Below the pieces are notes generated by a model, which searched no databases, had not been told where the DNA came from, and saw nothing but the letters and a program-made list of their open reading frames with translations. Positions 16,393 through 42,185 of a stretch of DNA of 42,185 nucleotides are shown piece after piece. The stretch is taken from IMG/VR virus record IMGVR_UViG_3300043139_000001, positions 1 through 42,185 of that record, one strand, 5' to 3'. The first letter of the stretch is position 1; each line of letters starts with the position of its first letter. The stretch is from a virus. Both the position numbers and the translations under genes were made by a program.

Positions 16393-16557
16393 ATGCAAGG
16401 CATGGTTACGATCGTCCTCACCCAAGAGGAGGAGGGCGGCGACGTCGACGTCAAGAGCTTCTTCGCCCCCCGCCTCAACTTGGAGGGCGAGAACCCCGAC
16501 ACCCACGGCTTCGCGGTCAAGATGCTCGAGGCCGTCGCCCAGGAGGCGGGAGCATGA
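16393..16557 (+). CDS. Possible 54-aa acidic protein translationally coupled to the recombinase
   Basis: ATG preceded by AACCGAAGGAG. Its stop overlaps the recombinase ATG (ATGA). Below the ORF-track size cutoff. Confidence 0.45.
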   Translation: MQGMVTIVLTQEEEGGDVDVKSFFAPRLNLEGENPDTHGFAVKMLEAVAQEAGA

Positions 16558-17156
16558 GCAGCCGACCCGACCTAACGACCCCCTGGGCCGATCGAGAGGA
16601 ACTGCGCAAGCTGCTCCTCGCCGCCCGCGACACCCACCCACGCGACTTCTTGCTCGTCTCCCTACTCGGGCTCAACGGCCTGCGTGTCTCGGAGGCGGTG
16701 AAAGCCGCTGTCGAGGATCTCGGCAGCTCCGGCGGGCACCGCACCCTCCACGTCGTGCGCAAGGGCCGCAAGCGCGGTGTCGTGCCACTCGCGCCGATCG
16801 TTTGCACGTCGATCGACGAGTTCCTCGCAGGACGCACGGAGGGGCCGCTCCTGCCGCGCCTACACGCCTCCGGGGCGGTGCTCGAGCCCTTGGTCGGGAT
16901 CTCCCGGCAGACGGCCTGGGATCGCGTCAAGGCCCTGGCCGACTGGATCGGCGTCAACCCCGACCTCTCGCCCCACTCCCTGCGGCGCAGCTTCGTCACC
17001 CTCGCCTTGCAGGACGGGGCGCCGCTGCATCAGGTGCAGCTCGCGGTCGGCCACGCCTCGCCGACGACGACGATGATCTACATGAAGGACGCGGGTGGCC
17101 TCGAGCACAACCCGACCTTCGACCTGGCTGACTCTCTACTTCGAGTGGAGGGTTAG
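16554..17156 (+). CDS. Tyrosine recombinase, catalytic domain only (200 aa)
   Basis: GLRVSE (Arg I at residue 44), VVRKGRK (Lys), HSLRRSF (His-x-x-Arg), VGHAS (His) and TMIYMK (Tyr) together make the full catalytic set. There is no room for an N-terminal core-binding domain. Confidence 0.85.
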   Translation: MSSRPDLTTPWADREELRKLLLAARDTHPRDFLLVSLLGLNGLRVSEAVKAAVEDLGSSGGHRTLHVVRKGRKRGVVPLAPIVCTSIDEFLAGRTEGPLLPRLHASGAVLEPLVGISRQTAWDRVKALADWIGVNPDLSPHSLRRSFVTLALQDGAPLHQVQLAVGHASPTTTMIYMKDAGGLEHNPTFDLADSLLRVEG

Positions 17157-24400: not shown

Positions 24401-24760
24401 ATGGCCCGGCCTCGGCCGGTTCGCTTCATCGCCAACAAGCCCGCTTGCTGGCTCGCCTCCTTCGACCCCGAGCATCGGCTCTGCAAAGGGAAGTGGGAGG
24501 CGTTTCACTTCCTCGGCAAGCAGGAAATGCGCAACTGCCCCGAGCTCTACGGGCTCGACGATCCCGAGCTGATGATGCTGATCGAATACGACCCGCGCAA
24601 CGGTGGGCCGGGGTGCGTGGAGCACCATCGCCCCTTCGATTCCTTCACTGGCGGCGAGCGTCTCGTCGTCCCTCGCCTGGCGCTGCCCGACGACGTCGAG
24701 GAGTTTGTTGACGAACGTGGTCTGGAATCTCTCGCCCAGCGGCGTTTTCCGGCCTCCTAA
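24401..24760 (+). CDS. Hypothetical Cys/His-containing 119-aa protein (possible nuclease-like metal site)
   Basis: ATG preceded by GGAGGCGG. Contains ..CKGKWEAFH..GGPGCVEHHRPFD... Last gene of the rightward replication operon. Confidence 0.55.
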   Translation: MARPRPVRFIANKPACWLASFDPEHRLCKGKWEAFHFLGKQEMRNCPELYGLDDPELMMLIEYDPRNGGPGCVEHHRPFDSFTGGERLVVPRLALPDDVEEFVDERGLESLAQRRFPAS

Positions 24761-25128
24761 GCGGTATCATGGCGGTGCCCGCGCGCAGATCGCCCCCATA
24801 CCTGGCGATCAAGCCCAGAGCCGCTAGTCACTAGCCGTGCCCTGGGGCCGTGAGGCAGAGGATCTCCTCCTCGCCCGCCGTCGCCGTTCCCTGGCGGCAC
24901 ACTCAAGGCGGCGGGAATCTTCGCCGGGCCGCGGCTCGCGGGAGCCAGCGGACCAAGCAACCGAGTCGATGCGCGCACGATCCTGGGGGACCGGCTTTGC
25001 TGGGGCCGGACGGAGGGATCACGGTGCCCGGTGGAGGAACCTCACGGCGGTCGGGAAGCGTTGAGAAAATCGTCGGGGCTCGTGCAGGAACGTCGTAGCT
25101 GTCGCGACCTGCGAATACCCCCGGAGGG

Positions 25129-25153
25129 GCCGGTTCGACTCCGGCGGCCGCCA
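25129..25153 (+). other. tRNA T-arm-like hairpin (GCCGG-TTCGACT-CCGGC) followed by GGCCGCCA
   Basis: The 17-nt arm is identical to the arm at 26572-26588 on the opposite strand. No complete cloverleaf could be drawn. Confidence 0.35.
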
Positions 25154-25224
25154 CTACGTTATTCCGGCCCGCCGGAATGAGACGGGCCGGAATGCCGGCT
25201 GTACCGGCTTCACGTAGCAGCCAA

Positions 25225-25255
25225 AACGCCGCGCCAAAAATCAGGGCGCGGCGTT
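25225..25255 (-). terminator. Terminator of the leftward operon (hairpin usable on both strands)
   Basis: aacgccgcgcc / ggcgcggcgtt form an 11-bp perfect stem with a 9-nt loop. On the minus strand the stem runs into TTTTGG. It overlaps the last codons of the 25241 gene. Confidence 0.55.
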
Positions 25256-25474
25256 GGCCGTACCGGCCTCGCGGATCAGGCGATTGGCGCGCTGTCGCGT
25301 GATCTCCCGCTCCGGCAACTGGCGGCCCTCTTCGAGCGTCAGCTCGGGATGGTCGCGGGCCTCGGCGAGAGCGGAGCCGAGCCGCTTTCGCAGCTCGACC
25401 CCCCGCTCTTCGTGTTCGTGGAGTTCCTGCTCGGTCGCGCCGATCTCTAGGCGGATCGCCTTCGCGCTCCGCAT
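25241..25474 (-). CDS. Hypothetical helical 77-aa protein
   Basis: ATG 3 nt after the upstream stop. Charged helical composition. Confidence 0.6.
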   Translation of the reverse strand: MRSAKAIRLEIGATEQELHEHEERGVELRKRLGSALAEARDHPELTLEEGRQLPEREITRQRANRLIREAGTANAAP

Positions 25475-25477
25475 CGG

Positions 25478-25636
25478 TCAGTCCTCGATATCCCAGGACA
25501 CCTCCACCGCTCCGTCGAGTCGGTCTTCCTCCTTGTTGTCCTCGACGAGTTCCTCGACCACGGCGACGGCCTTGGTCCGCAGCCAGTCGAGGTCCGACGA
25601 GTCGGCGCACTCGACGTTGATAACGAGCGTTGGCAT
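25478..25636 (-). CDS. Very acidic 52-aa protein
   Basis: ATG 25636 preceded by AACCGAAGGGAGCAGCA. I rejected the upstream extension to 25774 because it runs through the tRNA-like element. Confidence 0.55.
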   Translation of the reverse strand: MPTLVINVECADSSDLDWLRTKAVAVVEELVEDNKEEDRLDGAVEVSWDIED

Positions 25637-25666
25637 TGCTGCTCCCTTCGGTTGTGTTTGGTACAG

Positions 25667-25748
25667 GGGAGCGCCGGGGAATCGAACCCCGGCAGGCTCC
25701 AAGCGCCCCTTGGCCGCGAGCCGCGCGGTGAGTCCCGCGCGGCCCTCC
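25667..25748 (-). ncRNA. tRNA-like cloverleaf element E2 (not a canonical tRNA)
   Basis: The minus strand reads ggagggc-c-GCGCGG-gactca-CCGCGC-GGCTC-(18 nt)-GAGCC-tg-CGGGG-TTCGATT-CCCCG-gcgctcc-c. It has the T-loop consensus and acceptor-like ends pairing at 6/7 positions. There is no 7-nt anticodon loop. Confidence 0.4.
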
Positions 25749-25770
25749 GGCGTCGTCATATCCGGGCCTC

Positions 25771-26085
25771 TCATGCCCTGTCGAATCCGTCGAGCAGGTT
25801 GCGGATCGTCTCCTCGCTCATGCGGTCTTCGCCGATGATCTCGATCAGCCGCTCGCGCGCCTCATAGGCGCTCTCGGTTCGCGCTTCGCGGGCCTCGGCC
25901 AACTCGGCGAGGTAGTTGCGATAGCCGACGCCGTCCCGCTCGGCGTAGTCATAGCCCGACTCGTCGCACAGGTGGCGCAGGTCGCCGAGCAAGTCGGAGA
26001 TGCACTCCTCCACGCTTGAATCGTCTTCGTAGTTGAGGACCGCGCGGTACGCCTTCTCCGCGCGCTCTGCGTTCGTCCGCGCCAT
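25771..26085 (-). CDS. Hypothetical acidic 104-aa protein
   Basis: ATG 2 nt after the upstream stop. No family recognised. Confidence 0.65.
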   Translation of the reverse strand: MARTNAERAEKAYRAVLNYEDDSSVEECISDLLGDLRHLCDESGYDYAERDGVGYRNYLAELAEAREARTESAYEARERLIEIIGEDRMSEETIRNLLDGFDRA

Positions 26086-26087
26086 CG

Positions 26088-26525
26088 TCAGACCTCCTCC
26101 ACGGCGACGGACACTTTCCAGTGTGCGCCCTTGCCGCTCTCAAGGTCAACGATCCAGTTGAGCGCCCAGCCTTCGTTGAAGCTGCCCGCCGCCCACACCC
26201 CGACCTCCTCGGCCGTTCCGGCGAAGAAGTCCGGGTTATCGCGGTAGCTCGATTCGCCCGATCCCTCCGACGTGCAAGCGAGGAACTGCGGGCACTCGGG
26301 CAGCTCGCCCAACGGGCACCCAGCGGCATGGCCCGGCGTGTCCTGTTCGGCGCAGATGCACTCCTCCCCGGCGGCGTCGAACAGCTCCGCTACCTCGGGA
26401 TTGTGGATGCCGTCAGACGGGCTCTCGTCGTCGATCAGTTCGCGCAACCTGCGCAGCCGCTCGGCGTAGTTGGGTGGCGCTGCGCCGAGCCCGTCAGCGC
26501 CGGCCATCTCGGTTTCTGCGTTCAT
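26088..26525 (-). CDS. Hypothetical acidic 145-aa protein with a Cys cluster
   Basis: ATG 26525 preceded by AACCGAAGGGAGCAGCACCC. I rejected the upstream extension to 26600 because it runs through the tRNA-like element. Confidence 0.65.
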   Translation of the reverse strand: MNAETEMAGADGLGAAPPNYAERLRRLRELIDDESPSDGIHNPEVAELFDAAGEECICAEQDTPGHAAGCPLGELPECPQFLACTSEGSGESSYRDNPDFFAGTAEEVGVWAAGSFNEGWALNWIVDLESGKGAHWKVSVAVEEV

Positions 26526-26562
26526 GGGTGCTGCTCCCTTCGGTTGTACTGCGTTCGGTACA

Positions 26563-26608
26563 TGGCCGCGCGCCGGAGTCGAACCGGCGCGATGCTCCAA
26601 AGCGCGGC
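26563..26608 (-). ncRNA. tRNA-like acceptor/T-arm minihelix element E3
   Basis: The minus strand reads GCCGCGC-tttggagcatcgc-GCCGG-TTCGACT-CCGGC-GCGCGGC-CA. The 7-bp outer helix and 5-bp T stem are both perfect. It starts at the last base of the upstream stop codon. Confidence 0.4.
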
Positions 26609-26976
26609 TAGGCGTTGAGCTTGGCTGCCAGGTCGACGGCCTGACGCTCGCTCAGCTTCGGGAGATCCTGTAGGCCGTGACCACGGCGGCAGATGCCCCA
26701 GCCGAACGTACCGGCGGGCTGGCGATTGTTCGCGTCGAGGTCGATAGCGACGTACTCCCACTGAGGCGTAGCGACCACGATCTCGTCTTCCCGTTCGCTG
26801 ACGAGCTGCTCGCCGTCGAGCAGCCGCTCTGCGGCCGTGCTGACCGATCCGGGCTCACCGGACCAGTCGAGCCACAGAGAGGCGGCCTCTACGGCGGTCG
26901 GCTTCACGTCGCTCCGATAGCCCCGGTGGCTGCCGTTGACGTGGCGGCGGACGTGGAAGCTCGGCGCGGCGCTCAT
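26608..26976 (-). CDS. Hypothetical 122-aa protein
   Basis: ATGA overlap with the upstream gene. No family recognised. Confidence 0.6.
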   Translation of the reverse strand: MSAAPSFHVRRHVNGSHRGYRSDVKPTAVEAASLWLDWSGEPGSVSTAAERLLDGEQLVSEREDEIVVATPQWEYVAIDLDANNRQPAGTFGWGICRRGHGLQDLPKLSERQAVDLAAKLNA

Positions 26977-27650
26977 TCGATCAGCTCCGGCACCACACGG
27001 CGGGCGAACTCTTCGGCGGCTTCCTTCGCCTCGCCGGTCAGCTCGACCTCAGCCGAGCTGCTCCATGAGTAGCGGAAGAGCACCCGGCGGATTTCCAGCG
27101 AGGCGGCGGTGTCCTCGCTCCCCAGCTCGACGCCGCCCCCGCTGCACTCGATCAGCAAGCGGCGATCAGGGCCGCCAGTCCCGAGCACGATTTCAAACGT
27201 GGTCGAGGCTTCGACGCAGAGAGGAAGCGCGTTGAGGCGGTCCTCTGCTTCCTCGCGGACCTGCGCGGCGCTGAGTGGCCCAGCGACGCCGTAGCCGATA
27301 TCCAAGCCGAGCAGCTCGTCATTGCTCCATTCGTCGAGCTCGGCCTCCTCTACGTTCGCCAGCTTGAGCAGATCGGCTAGTTCCGTGGTCAGGCTCTCGG
27401 CCGACTCGCCGACGTAGAGAGCCGGGACAGTCTCGCTGTGCTCGGCCTCATAGTCGCTGATCGTGCCGAGCATCGACTGAGGGCAGAGGAACGCAGTCTC
27501 CGGCGTCCACTCCTCCCCGTCCGGCTTGACGCTGTAGAGCGGCTCCCCATAGGGGCCGAACTTGCCGAGCTGCTCGACCACGCGGCCGCTCCTCGCCCCG
27601 TAGCCAGCGCGGACCAGGACACGATCTCCGCTGTTGTGCTGGTAGTGCAT
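26973..27650 (-). CDS. Hypothetical 225-aa acidic protein with an SH3/Tudor-like N-terminus
   Basis: ATG 27650 preceded by AACCGAAGGAGTGACG. N-terminus GDRVLVRAGYGARSGRVVEQL..YSVKPDGEEW. First gene of the leftward operon. Confidence 0.65.
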   Translation of the reverse strand: MHYQHNSGDRVLVRAGYGARSGRVVEQLGKFGPYGEPLYSVKPDGEEWTPETAFLCPQSMLGTISDYEAEHSETVPALYVGESAESLTTELADLLKLANVEEAELDEWSNDELLGLDIGYGVAGPLSAAQVREEAEDRLNALPLCVEASTTFEIVLGTGGPDRRLLIECSGGGVELGSEDTAASLEIRRVLFRYSWSSSAEVELTGEAKEAAEEFARRVVPELIE

Positions 27651-27703
27651 CGTCACTCCTTCGGTTGCGCTGCGTTCATGTAACGCCCACGGTACAGCAT
27701 CGC

Positions 27704-27713
27704 GGGTACACGT
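27704..27713 (-). promoter_or_regulatory. Degenerate copy of the ACGTGTACAC motif upstream of the leftward operon
   Basis: The minus strand reads ctgctACGTGTACCCgcgatgctgTACCGT. The motif is followed 9 nt later by a TANNNT-like hexamer, 50-60 nt before ATG 27650. Confidence 0.35.
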
Positions 27714-28066
27714 AGCAGAGGATCGGCGGGACGTGGACACATGTTCGGTTCCGCTCTGCTCTCGGCGTTGACGTGCAGCGGATGGCGCGTTGGCTCTACG
27801 CGCGCTGCACCAAATGCGCGCGCGAGCTGCGCTGCTCAGCTCGGCACGTGGTCGGACATATCCGCCGGACTGTCAACCCTTGCTTGGCTCTGCGAGTGGG
27901 CGCGTTCGATCAAGCGAATGCAGAACCCTCGAAACCCTCCCGATCATGTACCGCAGGCGGCACAATCAGGGGGGCGGGGGAGTGGGCGAATCCCGGCGCT
28001 GGCGCATCTATATATCTCCACCCTCCTCTACAAGAATTGGCCGAAAGAGCGGCCTTGTGTACACGT

Positions 28067-28099
28067 CCGTCGAGTCAACCCGCTAGGGTGCCCGTCCGA
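28067..28099 (+). promoter_or_regulatory. GTGTACAC palindrome (28067-28074) and -10-like TAGGGT (28094-28099) upstream of the rightward operon
   Basis: Third exact GTGTACAC copy. Its reverse complement ACGTGTACACA matches the 16327 copy over 11 nt. Confidence 0.4.
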
Positions 28100-28149
28100 G
28101 GAATCGCCGGACAGCTACGGGGGCGGCACACTCCCTAGGGCACGGCGTA

Positions 28150-28195
28150 GGGCCTCGCCATCTGGACCCTGGCGGTCGTGCCGGTGGCGAGGCCC
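28150..28195 (+). other. Large leader hairpin 20 nt upstream of ATG 28216
   Basis: gggcctcgcca (28150-28160) pairs perfectly with tggcgaggccc (28185-28195) around a 24-nt loop. Confidence 0.5.
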
Positions 28196-28215
28196 GCTCT
28201 CACCCCCAGGAACCC

Positions 28216-29730
28216 ATGAGCGAGGAGACGAGAGTGGAGATCGCAGGACCGCACTTCGAGATCAACGAGACGGTCGAGCCGACCCCGGACGCGGCGATCA
28301 AGCCCGCGGGTCGAGTCGGCCGAGTCGAGTCTCGGGCATGGACCGAGTTCCGCGGCCAGCCCGGCTACTGGCGCTACACGATCCGCTGGCCCGGCGGGGG
28401 CACGTCGAACGAGTCGGCGAAACACCTACAGGTGGCCGACCGGATCGCCTGCGACTTGAAGGTGGTCGTCAGCGGCGCCCCGTTCAAGATCGAGACGTAC
28501 ACGACGCAGACCGTCGAGGAAGTCGTCGAGGTCGCGCTCGCGAAGGCGGGCATCCCGCACCCGGATACGCCGCCGAATCCGACCTGGCAACTCCGCACCG
28601 AGGACGGGCGCGAGCTGCGCCACTTGGTCGGCGATGCCGAGCTCGTCGACGGCGAGACGGTGCTCTACCTCGATCCCGAGGTCGGCGGTGGAGGCGACCA
28701 GGGGGGCGAGGTCGTCGAGAGCGGCTACATCTACCCCGGCTGGCAGGGGACGCCGCCCGCGGAGGGCACCCGGCGCGCGCTGATCCGCGACACGATCGGC
28801 GAGACGCTCGAGGGCGCCGAGATCGTCGTCAAGCCGGACGACCGGCCCTTCGAGGGCGACCTGCCGCTGGCGCTGGCCGATCGAGTCGAGGAGGCCCTGC
28901 TCCGCGTCGTCGACCAGGGCGCCACCCCGGAGTCGGGATCGCCCGCCTCGGTGGCTATGGACTTGCTCGACCAGTTCGAGATCCCGCGGACCCGCGAGGG
29001 CGCGATCCTGACGATCGCCCAGCGGGTGACGGCGCTGGCCGACGAGCTCGTGGAGACGCGCCGCCAGGCCGACATCCGCCGCGCCTCGGCAGACGGACTC
29101 GCCGCCACCGTCGACGCGCAGCAGCGGGCAATGGACAAGATCCGCGCCGAGGGCAAGGTCCCCGCCGGCACCAAGGAGCTCGTGATCGTGCTCGAGGACG
29201 TCTCCGACCCGGACGGGCCGCCGGAGTACCGCTTCATCGAGCTCGAGGATCAGGACGGGCGCAGCGTCGGCTCGTTCCCGATGCGCGCGAGCTCGACGCC
29301 GCCGCTCAGAGAGATCGCGATCCCCTACGGCCGCGACGACGCTTGGGTGAGCGAGGTCGCCTACCAGGCCGCCGGGGCCGGCACCCGGCCGCTCATGGAA
29401 GACCACCCCGACTACGTCTTCCCGTCAGAGCGCGTGGCGGACGCCGTCGCGGAGTTGCTCTCCGACTTCGGCATCCCGCGGGCCTGCCGCGACTGCGCCG
29501 AGGAGGAGCTCGGCCACGGCGCCAAGGAGGTCGACGGCCGCCGCGACGACACGATCAAGGCCCTCACCGCGCGCTGCGACTCCCTGCTCGCCCAGCGCGA
29601 AGCCTCGCGGGCGAGCGAGGACACCTACAAGGCCCAGCGCGACTCGGCGCTGCACCTTCTGCGCTGGCTGATCGGCGACCTGATCCCGGCCGACCTGATC
29701 CGGTTCCAAGCCGAGCAGGAAAACTCGTGA
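28216..29730 (+). CDS. Hypothetical 504-aa protein, first gene of the rightward operon
   Basis: ATG with a weak SD. Ordinary amino-acid composition, unlike the overlapping Arg-rich 27741 frame. Residues 81-160 look beta-grasp-like and end in VGGGG. Confidence 0.7.
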   Translation: MSEETRVEIAGPHFEINETVEPTPDAAIKPAGRVGRVESRAWTEFRGQPGYWRYTIRWPGGGTSNESAKHLQVADRIACDLKVVVSGAPFKIETYTTQTVEEVVEVALAKAGIPHPDTPPNPTWQLRTEDGRELRHLVGDAELVDGETVLYLDPEVGGGGDQGGEVVESGYIYPGWQGTPPAEGTRRALIRDTIGETLEGAEIVVKPDDRPFEGDLPLALADRVEEALLRVVDQGATPESGSPASVAMDLLDQFEIPRTREGAILTIAQRVTALADELVETRRQADIRRASADGLAATVDAQQRAMDKIRAEGKVPAGTKELVIVLEDVSDPDGPPEYRFIELEDQDGRSVGSFPMRASSTPPLREIAIPYGRDDAWVSEVAYQAAGAGTRPLMEDHPDYVFPSERVADAVAELLSDFGIPRACRDCAEEELGHGAKEVDGRRDDTIKALTARCDSLLAQREASRASEDTYKAQRDSALHLLRWLIGDLIPADLIRFQAEQENS

Positions 29731-39670: not shown

Positions 39671-39997
39671 TCACGCCGGGTTGTCGCGTCGCAGCATCTT
39701 GAGCGCGCGGGCCTTCGCGTCCTTGCGTTTGCGGTGCCGGCGCATCGTCTTCATATCGGGCTTCCACGCCTTCGGCTTGCCGCTCCTCGAGCCCTTGCCG
39801 TAGCCGCGGTAGATGAAGCTCGCGAAGTAGCCCTTCGGGTCGTCGTCGGTCTGATCGGCCCGCTCCGTCGTCCAGCAGTACATGTTGCCGTTGGCTCCCT
39901 GGAAGTAACGGTAAGAGGGGGCGGCGGAAACCGCTCCCATTTCCCGCATGAACTGGTTGAGCCGCTCGACGATTGCCGGGTTCACTTCCTCGCTCAT
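39671..39997 (-). CDS. Hypothetical 108-aa protein with a basic C-terminus, encoded antisense within the structural region
   Basis: ATG 39997 preceded by CAACCGAAGGGAGCACAC, the same leader as the leftward-operon genes. I shortened the 302-aa ORF on the track. Confidence 0.65.
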   Translation of the reverse strand: MSEEVNPAIVERLNQFMREMGAVSAAPSYRYFQGANGNMYCWTTERADQTDDDPKGYFASFIYRGYGKGSRSGKPKAWKPDMKTMRRHRKRKDAKARALKMLRRDNPA

Positions 39998-40017
39998 GTG
40001 TGCTCCCTTCGGTTGGG

Positions 40018-40029
40018 TGTGAGTACACA
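40018..40029 (-). promoter_or_regulatory. Degenerate GTGTAC-type motif in the leader of the antisense gene
   Basis: The minus strand reads aaATGTGTACTCACacccaaccgaaggg. It lies in a comparatively AT-rich 153-nt divergent spacer. Confidence 0.3.
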
Positions 40030-41724: not shown

Positions 41725-42185
41725 TGCCGACCGCGCCGAAACCGATCCCCTTCACCACCTTCGGGGGGCTGATCCTCAACAAGCCGCTCGACGACGTCGG
41801 CGCCGACAACGCGATCGACATCCTCGACGTCGATTGGGACAACTCCCTGTCGACGCTGCGCTCGAGGGAGGGCGCGGCCGCGTTCTCGCCGGCCGACGCC
41901 GCTTCGAGCTACGACGTCCTCTTCGGCCACTCGCTCACCCGCCTCCTCGCCCGTCGCGGCTCGACGCTCTACCCGCTCAACGCCGAAGGCAAAGAGATCG
42001 CCGGCAAGGAAGCGGCGACCAACGAAAAGCACCTGGCCTTCGCCAAGCTCGGGACGCCCTCGGCCTCCTACACCTACATCGCCGACCAGGAAAACACCCT
42101 CAAGCGCTACGACGGCACCGACTTCGCGAGCCCGACGTGCAACGTCGGCGAAGCGAAAGGCGTGGCGATGCCGAAGGGCCGCTTC
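41724..42185 (+). CDS. N-terminal part of the tail hub/nozzle candidate that continues at 128..1189 through the circular junction
   Basis: GTG overlaps the upstream stop (TAGTG). The frame stays open to the window end and is in phase with the 104..1189 ORF. Confidence 0.7.
   Translation, partial: MPTAPKPIPFTTFGGLILNKPLDDVGADNAIDILDVDWDNSLSTLRSREGAAAFSPADAASSYDVLFGHSLTRLLARRGSTLYPLNAEGKEIAGKEAATNEKHLAFAKLGTPSASYTYIADQENTLKRYDGTDFASPTCNVGEAKGVAMPKGRF
42059..42185. repeat. Terminal exact direct repeat, copy 2 (identical to 1-127)
   Basis: Same 127 nt as the window start. Confidence 0.95.

Follow-up and report, generated by a model that had tools for sequence, protein, structure and literature searches.

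We analyzed a phage genome of 42,185 nucleotides (nt), IMG/VR record IMGVR_UViG_3300043139_000001 and hereafter called the window, and found on its minus strand two copies of a miniature transfer RNA (tRNA)-like element, element B at 25667..25709 and element A at 26564..26608. The two are best explained as members of a family, not described before, of tRNA mimics that measure 42-46 nt, lack an anticodon and occur in polycistronic phage operons. We have little doubt that this is a real, conserved and hitherto unannotated RNA family with the structure given below, and our search of the literature found no description of such phage elements. As a function we favour, with reserve, a signal in the operon mRNA for host tRNA-processing enzymes.

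Structure and conservation of the miniature tRNA-like elements

An initial annotation had described a tRNA-sized cloverleaf of 82 nt at 25667-25748 of the minus strand. The window sequence confirmed these coordinates along with a perfect T arm, CGGGG-UUCGAUU-CCCCG, which can be extended to 6 base pairs (bp) as CCGGGG/CCCCGG. No anticodon arm could be drawn, as had been noted, ARAGORN called 0 tRNA or transfer-messenger RNA (tmRNA) genes in the window, and no Rfam 15 family reached its gathering score. The cloverleaf itself did not survive. The minimum-energy fold consists of an upstream hairpin and a T-arm hairpin with the termini unpaired, and in most orthologous copies a stop codon abuts a 43-nt unit, so that the extra 40 nt would have no place. 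The closing stem that had been drawn between GGAGGGC (25748-25742) and GCGCTCC, with 6 of 7 positions paired, does not use the conserved partner; it is GGGGCG at 25709-25704 that stands in register with every family member. Two further helices had been proposed, of which GCGCGG/CCGCGC is real but lies inside a separate hairpin (25745-25718) found only in the window and in locus L014, while GGCTC/GAGCC is unsupported because GAGCC is part of a family-wide single-stranded linker motif, UUGGAGC. The sequence GCGGCCAAGGGG, previously likened to a class II D-loop, is not a D-loop, and its GGGG begins the acceptor stem. A stretch transcribed earlier as GAGCC-tg-CGGGG was one base short and reads GAGCC-tgc-CGGGG.

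Element B, defined here from its sequence, the consensus structure and pair counts, scored 65.9 bits with a covariance model of the family (R1, see below). Its acceptor 5' strand GGGGCG (25709-25704) pairs with CGCUCC (25673-25668), giving a G3.U70 pair, and is followed by an 11-nt linker, C-UUGGAGC-CUG (25703-25693). The 6-bp T stem is formed by CCGGGG (25692-25687) and CCCCGG (25679-25674) around the T loop UUCGAUU (25686-25680), and the discriminator is C25667. Element A, which was absent from the initial annotation and lies about 900 nt upstream of element B, was found by a structural scan (R1 score 62.7 bits). It consists of the acceptor GCCGCG (26608-26603) with CGCGGC (26570-26565), a linker carrying UUUGGAGC (26602-26590), a T stem of 26589-26584 with 26576-26571, the T loop UUCGACU (26583-26577) and a C discriminator (26564). 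The two copies differ in both acceptor and T stem and have in common the linker UUGGAGC and the sequence downstream. An R1 scan of the window returned exactly these two copies.

An exact search of IMG/VR with the 23-mer covering the T arm and 3' acceptor strand (GGGGTTCGATTCCCCGGCGCTCC) returned four contigs. Among them are L004, with a phage tRNA-Ala(UGC) that is genuine, and L002, which is distantly related to the window phage and has the miniature version. Relatives were also obtained through a terminase-like protein, two DNA patterns and the R1 model, built on 14 seeds. The resulting 42 distinct copies carry 28 different acceptor strands and come from high-GC relatives of the window phage as well as from unrelated phage contigs, with a locus GC content of 36-60%. 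Within the 14 seeds, 94.6% of the pair cells were paired compared with 49-56% in controls in which the pairing was slid. RNAalifold applied to 31 copies aligned with the covariance model independently yielded a 6-bp acceptor and a 6-bp T stem. For this 6+6 structure 97.8% of the pair cells held standard pairs (50-56% when slid), double compensatory changes were observed in 10 of the 12 pairs, and the covariation score was 0.707 against at most 0.225 in controls, all of these values being drawn from an alignment that was fitted to the model and in which several copies are closely related. A first model with 7+5 stems was dropped, with pair 7:66 mismatched in 24 of the 42 copies; the 6+6 architecture fits better and explains this mismatch.

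The initial annotation had named the lack of a covariance-model hit and of compensatory changes among the observations that would speak against the element. A Rfam hit above threshold is indeed absent; compensatory substitutions, however, are abundant. The same annotation had suggested a decayed phage tRNA, a reading that we reject, since stems that covary in 42 copies from very different phages indicate a structure under selection.

Across the family the element measures 42-46 nt and has neither a D arm nor an anticodon arm, with only 10-14 unpaired nt between the acceptor and the T stem. The 6-bp acceptor and 6-bp T stem give 12 stacked bp from the acceptor end to the T loop, equal to the 7+5 stack of tRNA and to the minihelix length recognised by RNase P, RNase Z and the CCA-adding enzyme. 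The T loop is UUCGAUU in 32 of the 42 copies, with U54, U55, C56, R57 and A58 kept and a consensus of UUCGAYU, and both G52-C62 and G53-C61 are invariant. The element thus has the features of a canonical tRNA T arm, namely G53-C61 and a loop of the T54-Psi55-C56-R57-A58 type, together with a covarying acceptor stem that closes the molecule. A yUGG(A)GC motif is conserved in the linker, with UGG near-invariant. This linker resembles a D loop's 3' half together with the D stem (UUGG-[UA]-GAGC), and by analogy with tRNA its guanines could make the contacts of G18/G19 with the T loop that form the 'elbow'. The discriminator varies, being C in 23 of the 42 copies, and an encoded CCA is very rare. 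G3.U70 was observed in copy B and in L002, together with a tRNA-Ala acceptor and T arm, and is missing from most copies. A variant at site A was also observed at L012 3718..3688 (minus strand), where the linker is missing and a continuous 12-bp hairpin, GCCGCUCGUCGG/CCGGCGGGCGGU, carries the loop UUCGACU and runs into C-CUGUACCC; this amounts to a naturally occurring 'minihelix' version of the element.

Family members scored 27-72 bits with R1, compared with at most 21 bits for the 20 canonical tRNAs of L004. In a permissive Rfam 15 search of 25550-25850 the best match was mascRNA-menRNA (RF01684; 26.1 bits, E = 0.0024, threshold 42.5), which covers 25709..25668 only and pairs GGGGCGC with GCGCUCC around the T arm. 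The canonical tRNA model (RF00005) gave no match to the element even at E <= 10. Neither the Rfam tmRNA models matched the 43-nt element nor did ARAGORN find a tmRNA or a tag open reading frame (ORF), and the Y RNA/YrlA models gave no match at E <= 10, with the 6-bp acceptor as the sole terminal stem. The elements thus fall outside the tRNA, tmRNA, mascRNA and Y RNA families. ARAGORN misses the family, as does Rfam 15 where tested, and its members in phage genomes are presumably unannotated.

Position of the elements in phage operons

Elements A and B sit in a minus-strand operon (27740..25241) of small proteins without an assigned function. All 44 of the copies whose surroundings were examined lie behind a stop codon on the same strand, and in 40 of these an ORF of at least 40 codons ends no more than 60 nt upstream. 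In 30 of the 40 the last one or two bases of the stop codon are themselves acceptor nt 1 or 1-2, in high- and low-GC phages alike. Element A is one such case, its nt 1 (G26608) being the final base of the TAG stop of ORF 26976..26608, which encodes a 122-aa protein. The copies are typically paired, 0.3-1.05 kb apart, and bracket 1-3 small ORFs. Elements of the lower-GC phages (L085, L190, L107, L177, L091) are likewise paired and have different acceptor stems. The bracketed genes do not form a single conserved family, which rules out a dedicated regulator of one protein. In L085 an identical hairpin, CGUGGAUGUUCCACG, stands behind each of the two copies, and one L190 copy ends in an encoded ACCA.

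Downstream of the element, high-GC relatives usually have the next start preceded by a Shine-Dalgarno (SD) sequence 30-39 nt past the discriminator, reached through a conserved leader. Behind element B this leader (25637..25666, minus strand) reads C-UGUACC-AAAC-ACAACC-GAAGGGAG-CAGCA and spans from the base after the discriminator up to the ATG at 25636-25634 of a 52-aa ORF (to 25478), with the SD at 25649-25642. Behind element A (26526..26563, minus strand) it reads A-UGUACC-GAACGCA-GUACA-ACC-GAAGGGAG-CAGCACCC, holds an inverted repeat UGUAC-N8-GUACA, and leads through an SD at 26541-26534 to the ATG at 26525-26523 of a 145-aa ORF (to 26088). We counted three occurrences of the motif TGTACY..AACCGAAGG in the window, where 0.00 would be expected, and two of them directly follow A and B. 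The third, UGUACY..AACCGAAGGGAGCA at 40027..40006 (minus strand), has no tRNA-like element, and this recurrence of the leader by itself fits a discriminator that marks the 5' end of an mRNA. Another motif, GGTTCGANTCC, likewise has three occurrences in the window, where 0.22 would be expected, and each of them falls within 25.1-26.6 kb.

The third leader copy precedes a 108-aa minus-strand ORF (ATG 39996, stop 39672) that is inserted in the opposite orientation to the structural genes. This region (39672-40027) has an unusually AT-rich stretch on its upstream side and a GC hairpin downstream, and the gene looks like an independently transcribed moron with the type of 5' untranslated region found in the genes behind A and B.

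The spacer preceding element B contains two additional features on the minus strand. The first is a conserved 20-mer, GAGGCCCGGATATGACGACG (25751..25770), which lies at the 5' edge of the B module and is identical in L014 despite different flanking genes. The second, recognised by folding and by comparison with L014, is a strong hairpin (25713..25751) between the stop codon TGA (25773-25771) and the element, with an 11-bp stem (25745-25735 with 25728-25718), a GACUCA loop and 4 outer pairs. L014 has a hairpin of different sequence in the same place, and the other orthologous copies have none. A sequence resembling the 20-mer, CCGGCGGATATGTCCGAC (27851-27868, minus strand), was observed in the divergent control region that heads the minus-strand operon, with 2 nt separating it from a TTGACA box (27876-27871) on its upstream side, and the motif represented by GAGGCCCGGATATGACGACG and CCGGCGGATATGTCCGAC may be an operator or promoter-associated motif. 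We looked for a sigma-70 promoter at elements A and B and found none.

The window and L014 share a conserved intergenic module, with different genes on both sides of it in the two phages. Proteins encoded downstream of A-type copies (window 26088-26525, minus strand; L005, L017, L144, L183) have their first ~30-40 residues, MNAE[T/S]EM..ADGLG, in common and then diverge. In L183 both elements precede the same gene start.

A candidate processing signal and its alternatives

The function that we favour, and on which we are evenly divided, is by analogy that of a tRNA-like signal acting in cis, at which RNase P and a 3' tRNase would process, and so punctuate, the phage operon mRNA. This was one of three hypotheses in the initial annotation, next to the decayed tRNA and a decoy for host factors, and it is the best supported of the three. 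It is also the best fit to the anatomy, given the 12-bp stack with a canonical T loop and GG linker, the start at the stop codon, the leader after the discriminator and the bracketing pairs, features from which we infer cleavage.

Under this proposal host tRNA-end-processing enzymes would read the folded element. RNase P would cut 5' of nt 1, in most copies inside or beside the upstream stop codon, and the cut behind the discriminator would fall to a 3' tRNase, either RNase Z or an endonuclease together with exonucleases. A long early transcript would thereby be split into defined mRNAs, the downstream one beginning with the UGUACC...GAAGGGAG leader or keeping a paired tRNA-like 5' end, which could serve as protection from 5'-end-dependent RNases. 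A mini-tRNA of ~45 nt would possibly be released as a by-product.

Several known systems bear on this proposal. Minihelices of an acceptor and T arm suffice as substrates for bacterial RNase P, RNase Z and the CCA-adding enzyme, and the 12-bp acceptor/T stack with its T loop is the minimal unit also for EF-Tu, and for alanyl-tRNA synthetase (AlaRS) when G3.U70 is present. tmRNA, in its tRNA-like domain, has no D arm but an unpaired analogue of the D loop that contains GG. Copy B resembles tmRNA and tRNA-Ala in its GGGGC... start and G3.U70. The phage elements differ from these systems as natural stand-alone units inside mRNAs, with no mRNA-like domain, and most copies have no G3.U70 and a discriminator that is usually C rather than A.

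Punctuation of animal mitochondrial transcripts by tRNAs was reportedly set out by Ojala, Montoya and Attardi in 1981. Cleavage there leaves U or UA, and adenylation completes the stop codon. As in the phage operons, tRNA-shaped units abut coding sequence between genes; in mitochondria, however, the marks are functional tRNAs, whereas the phage elements cannot decode and the full stop codon is encoded. The mascRNA and MEN-beta tRNA-like modules at the 3' ends of MALAT1 and NEAT1 are cut by RNase P and then RNase Z, receive CCA, and thereby make the 3' end of the upstream RNA. These gave the best Rfam match, over the acceptor plus T arm, although this match is below threshold, mascRNA keeps a small anticodon-like arm and is vertebrate and nuclear, and there is no sequence homology beyond generic tRNA features. 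The RNase III sites of T7 and the T4-type PeSL cassettes (RNase III duplexes, or promoter plus terminator) are similar as repeated structured modules between early genes that set mRNA ends or stability and double as shuffling joints. Neither is tRNA-like, and both the fold and the presumed enzyme are different.

The t-elements of plant mitochondria, which carry a GGTTCRANYCC motif, direct RNase P/Z cleavage of mRNAs, and the mRNA 3' ends formed include ends at or inside the stop codon (nad6, ccmC) (PMC1920247). The phage elements share with them a non-decoding tRNA-like fold with the same T-arm motif within a longer, predicted polycistronic transcript. A location at mRNA 5' and 3' ends, including the stop codon, is predicted to be alike as well, from two positional proxies in the phage (the stop-codon overlap and the leader boundary), and the excised RNA of t-elements can be stable and C- or CCA-tailed, a likeness that the phage elements may share. 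The t-elements are degenerate cloverleaves of ~70 nt, compared with 42-46 nt without a D or anticodon arm in the phage elements, which sit in bacteriophage operons with bacterial enzymes presumed. Overlap with the stop codon and a fixed downstream leader are stereotyped in the phage elements, unlike in t-elements, and cleavage has been demonstrated for t-elements whereas for the phage elements it is deduced.

Several observations count against the processing proposal. Copy B is atypical, lying 62 nt past the stop codon behind the 20-mer and the extra hairpin, and in the lowest-energy fold of B by itself GCUCC pairs with the linker GGAGC and not with GGGGCG. T-loop patterns were used to find the distant members, so the invariance of the T loop there is partly an ascertainment effect. 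RNase P and the 3' tRNase are named through mimicry of their substrates, and a cut within the stop codon would leave a non-stop upstream message that needs an explanation. Finally, the element, leader and first codons behave as a mosaic joint, and their conservation may partly be DNA-level history.

One extension of the processing proposal we consider unlikely. Punctuation would be mitochondria-like with a second output: RNase P would cut in the stop and leave U, UA or UG, the upstream cistron would be non-stop or have its stop regenerated by 3' adenylation, and excised, CCA-tailed mini-tRNAs of ~45 nt would accumulate. These would act in trans as mimics of the acceptor/T half, titrating acceptor-end defence toxins or, for the G3.U70 copy, AlaRS or SmpB.

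Such an RNA could also be the purpose of the element, and we allow a small chance that the excised, CCA-tailed small RNA acts in trans by mimicking the acceptor/T-arm half of tRNA and titrating or misdirecting a host factor. Candidates would be defence toxins that modify or cleave acceptor ends, the CCA-adding enzyme and EF-Tu, and for copy B also AlaRS and SmpB. The anatomy, which is that of the tmRNA tRNA-like domain minus its mRNA part, is consistent with this role, as are the match of copy B and L002 to the acceptor and T arm of the L004 tRNA-Ala(UGC), G3.U70 included, the presence of at least two copies per genome with different acceptor sequences, and an operon of small genes without assigned function that is typical of early or host-takeover regions. 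Most copies, however, are without G3.U70 or any common identity element, the discriminator is variable and CCA is almost never encoded, and a trans-acting RNA would have no need of the strict coupling to a stop codon and a downstream leader. Nor did we find a tRNA-related enzyme or a known defence or anti-defence gene beside the elements.

It is rather improbable that the elements are plain structural hairpins, whether intercistronic stabilisers, exonuclease blocks or factor-independent terminators or attenuators, with a tRNA likeness that reflects only ancestry and tRNA enzymes uninvolved. GC-rich 12-bp hairpins at gene ends would suit such roles, the L012 variant is a continuous hairpin without a linker, another hairpin lies just upstream of copy B, and T runs follow the distant members L152 and L168. 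A terminator scan of 24500-28300, however, found no hairpin-plus-T-tract at A or B. With all the stem sequences changing, a plain hairpin would not preserve the UGG linker, G53-C61 and a T loop of 7 nt, and the stem length is fixed at 6+6 bp, the ruler length of tRNA.

The mosaic arrangement raises the question of a DNA-level joint for cassette exchange, either by homologous recombination at a common module or as a site for a small tyrosine recombinase, such as the 200-aa enzyme encoded at 16554-17156 of the window. The module conserved between the window and L014 amid different genes, and the proteins behind A-type copies that agree only over their first residues, would be expected of such a joint. 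We nevertheless consider it improbable. Every copy examined is on the strand of its flanking ORF, and the apical loop and bulge are conserved while the stems covary, the opposite of attC/attP recombinase core sites; this combination points to RNA. The T-loop consensus is exactly that of tRNA, and mosaicism is a possible consequence of any conserved regulatory cassette.

We regard as very improbable a decaying tRNA-Ala pseudogene or a copy of a tRNA 3' end in attP. The 23-mer is identical to the 3' part of the real L004 phage tRNA-Ala, phages commonly integrate into tRNA or tmRNA 3' ends, and one relative, L254, is integrated in a Solirubrobacterales chromosome. This reading was rejected because the element includes a 5' acceptor strand, dispensable in an attP core, whose bases covary with those of the 3' strand, two copies of different sequence lie 8.5-10 kb from the integrase, and the fixed size of 42-46 nt is kept across many phages. 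Prophage L254 itself has no copy within 10 kb on either side of its terminase gene. That the spacer is coding, as part of a 98-aa ORF (25774..25478) that overlaps the upstream stop as ATGA and runs through the element into the 52-aa ORF, is hardly credible and was likewise rejected: the frame is open with a GC content at third codon positions of ~0.7-0.8, but GC is equally high in all three phases, codon positions 1/2/3 hold 8/6/9 of the differences between the window and L014, in L014 the frame does not run on to the downstream ATG, ATG 25636 has a strong SD (GAAGGGAG) in front of it, and in most copies the upstream ORF ends at element nt 1-2.

If the elements are cut by tRNA-processing enzymes as we propose, several unrelated phage lineages would use the punctuation principle in a minimal 43-nt form, a principle whose documented cases come to date from mitochondria and a few eukaryotic long non-coding RNAs and not from phages. 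The elements would then lend themselves, as minimal substrates from nature, to studies of how RNase P, RNase Z and the CCA-adding enzyme measure tRNA, would account for the splitting of long phage early transcripts into messages of differing stability, and would offer a compact, portable processing signal for synthetic operons. The overlap with stop codons also raises the question of whether bacteria and phages tolerate or exploit messages cut inside a stop codon.

Genome context and other tRNA-like units

The window carries an exact 127-nt repeat at both termini (1-127 and 42059-42185) and, per this repeat, is a complete phage genome of ~42,058 bp, circularly closed or terminally redundant. 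Its gene products include a P22-like portal, an SU10-type adaptor, a DnaB-like helicase and a Sak4-like protein. The tyrosine recombinase at 16554-17156 (plus strand; Phage_integrase, 72.8 bits) is unusually short, and small minus-strand genes lie just upstream of its gene. Close relatives of the window phage were found in Solirubrobacterales metagenome-assembled genomes, and L254 is a prophage within a 2.5-Mb Solirubrobacterales chromosome; the hosts of these relatives are likely Solirubrobacterales.

Searches with Pfam and PHROGs gave a sole match among the proteins of the operon, phrog_3963 (function unassigned), for a 104-aa protein. No related locus was matched in a search with this neighbouring protein. 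The INPHARED phage collection held no relative of the window region, the only match being a 50-nt mycobacteriophage stretch in the 104-aa gene, and no relatives of the low-GC loci L170 and L168.

A larger tRNA-like element of 108 nt was observed at 25046..25153 on the plus strand, at the convergent end of the plus-strand operon. It has an acceptor (GGCGGUC/GGCCGCC), a T arm (GCCGG-UUCGACU-CCGGC) and an A discriminator, together with a short, aberrant D-like arm and an expanded 'anticodon-like' arm. ARAGORN made no call, and the best Rfam match, tRNA-Sec at 17 bits, is sub-threshold. Conserved elements of this type are present in 9 related phages; they measure 76-108 nt, covary in their T stems and fall into two sequence types, one of which begins GGCGGUA-UGGAGC. 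The plus-strand element is probably a relative of the same phenomenon as the miniature elements, separate from the finding of A and B. The tRNA-Met of prophage L254 was considered as its kin and proved unrelated.

Units of 68-70 nt were also observed in two unrelated viral contigs, L001 (4463-4532, plus strand) and L003 (4847..4778, minus strand). Each matches tRNA-Ala exactly in its acceptor (GGGGCGC/GCGCUCC with G3.U70), T arm and A discriminator, around an aberrant middle that drew no ARAGORN call, and these units may be intermediates between a tRNA-Ala gene and the miniature element.

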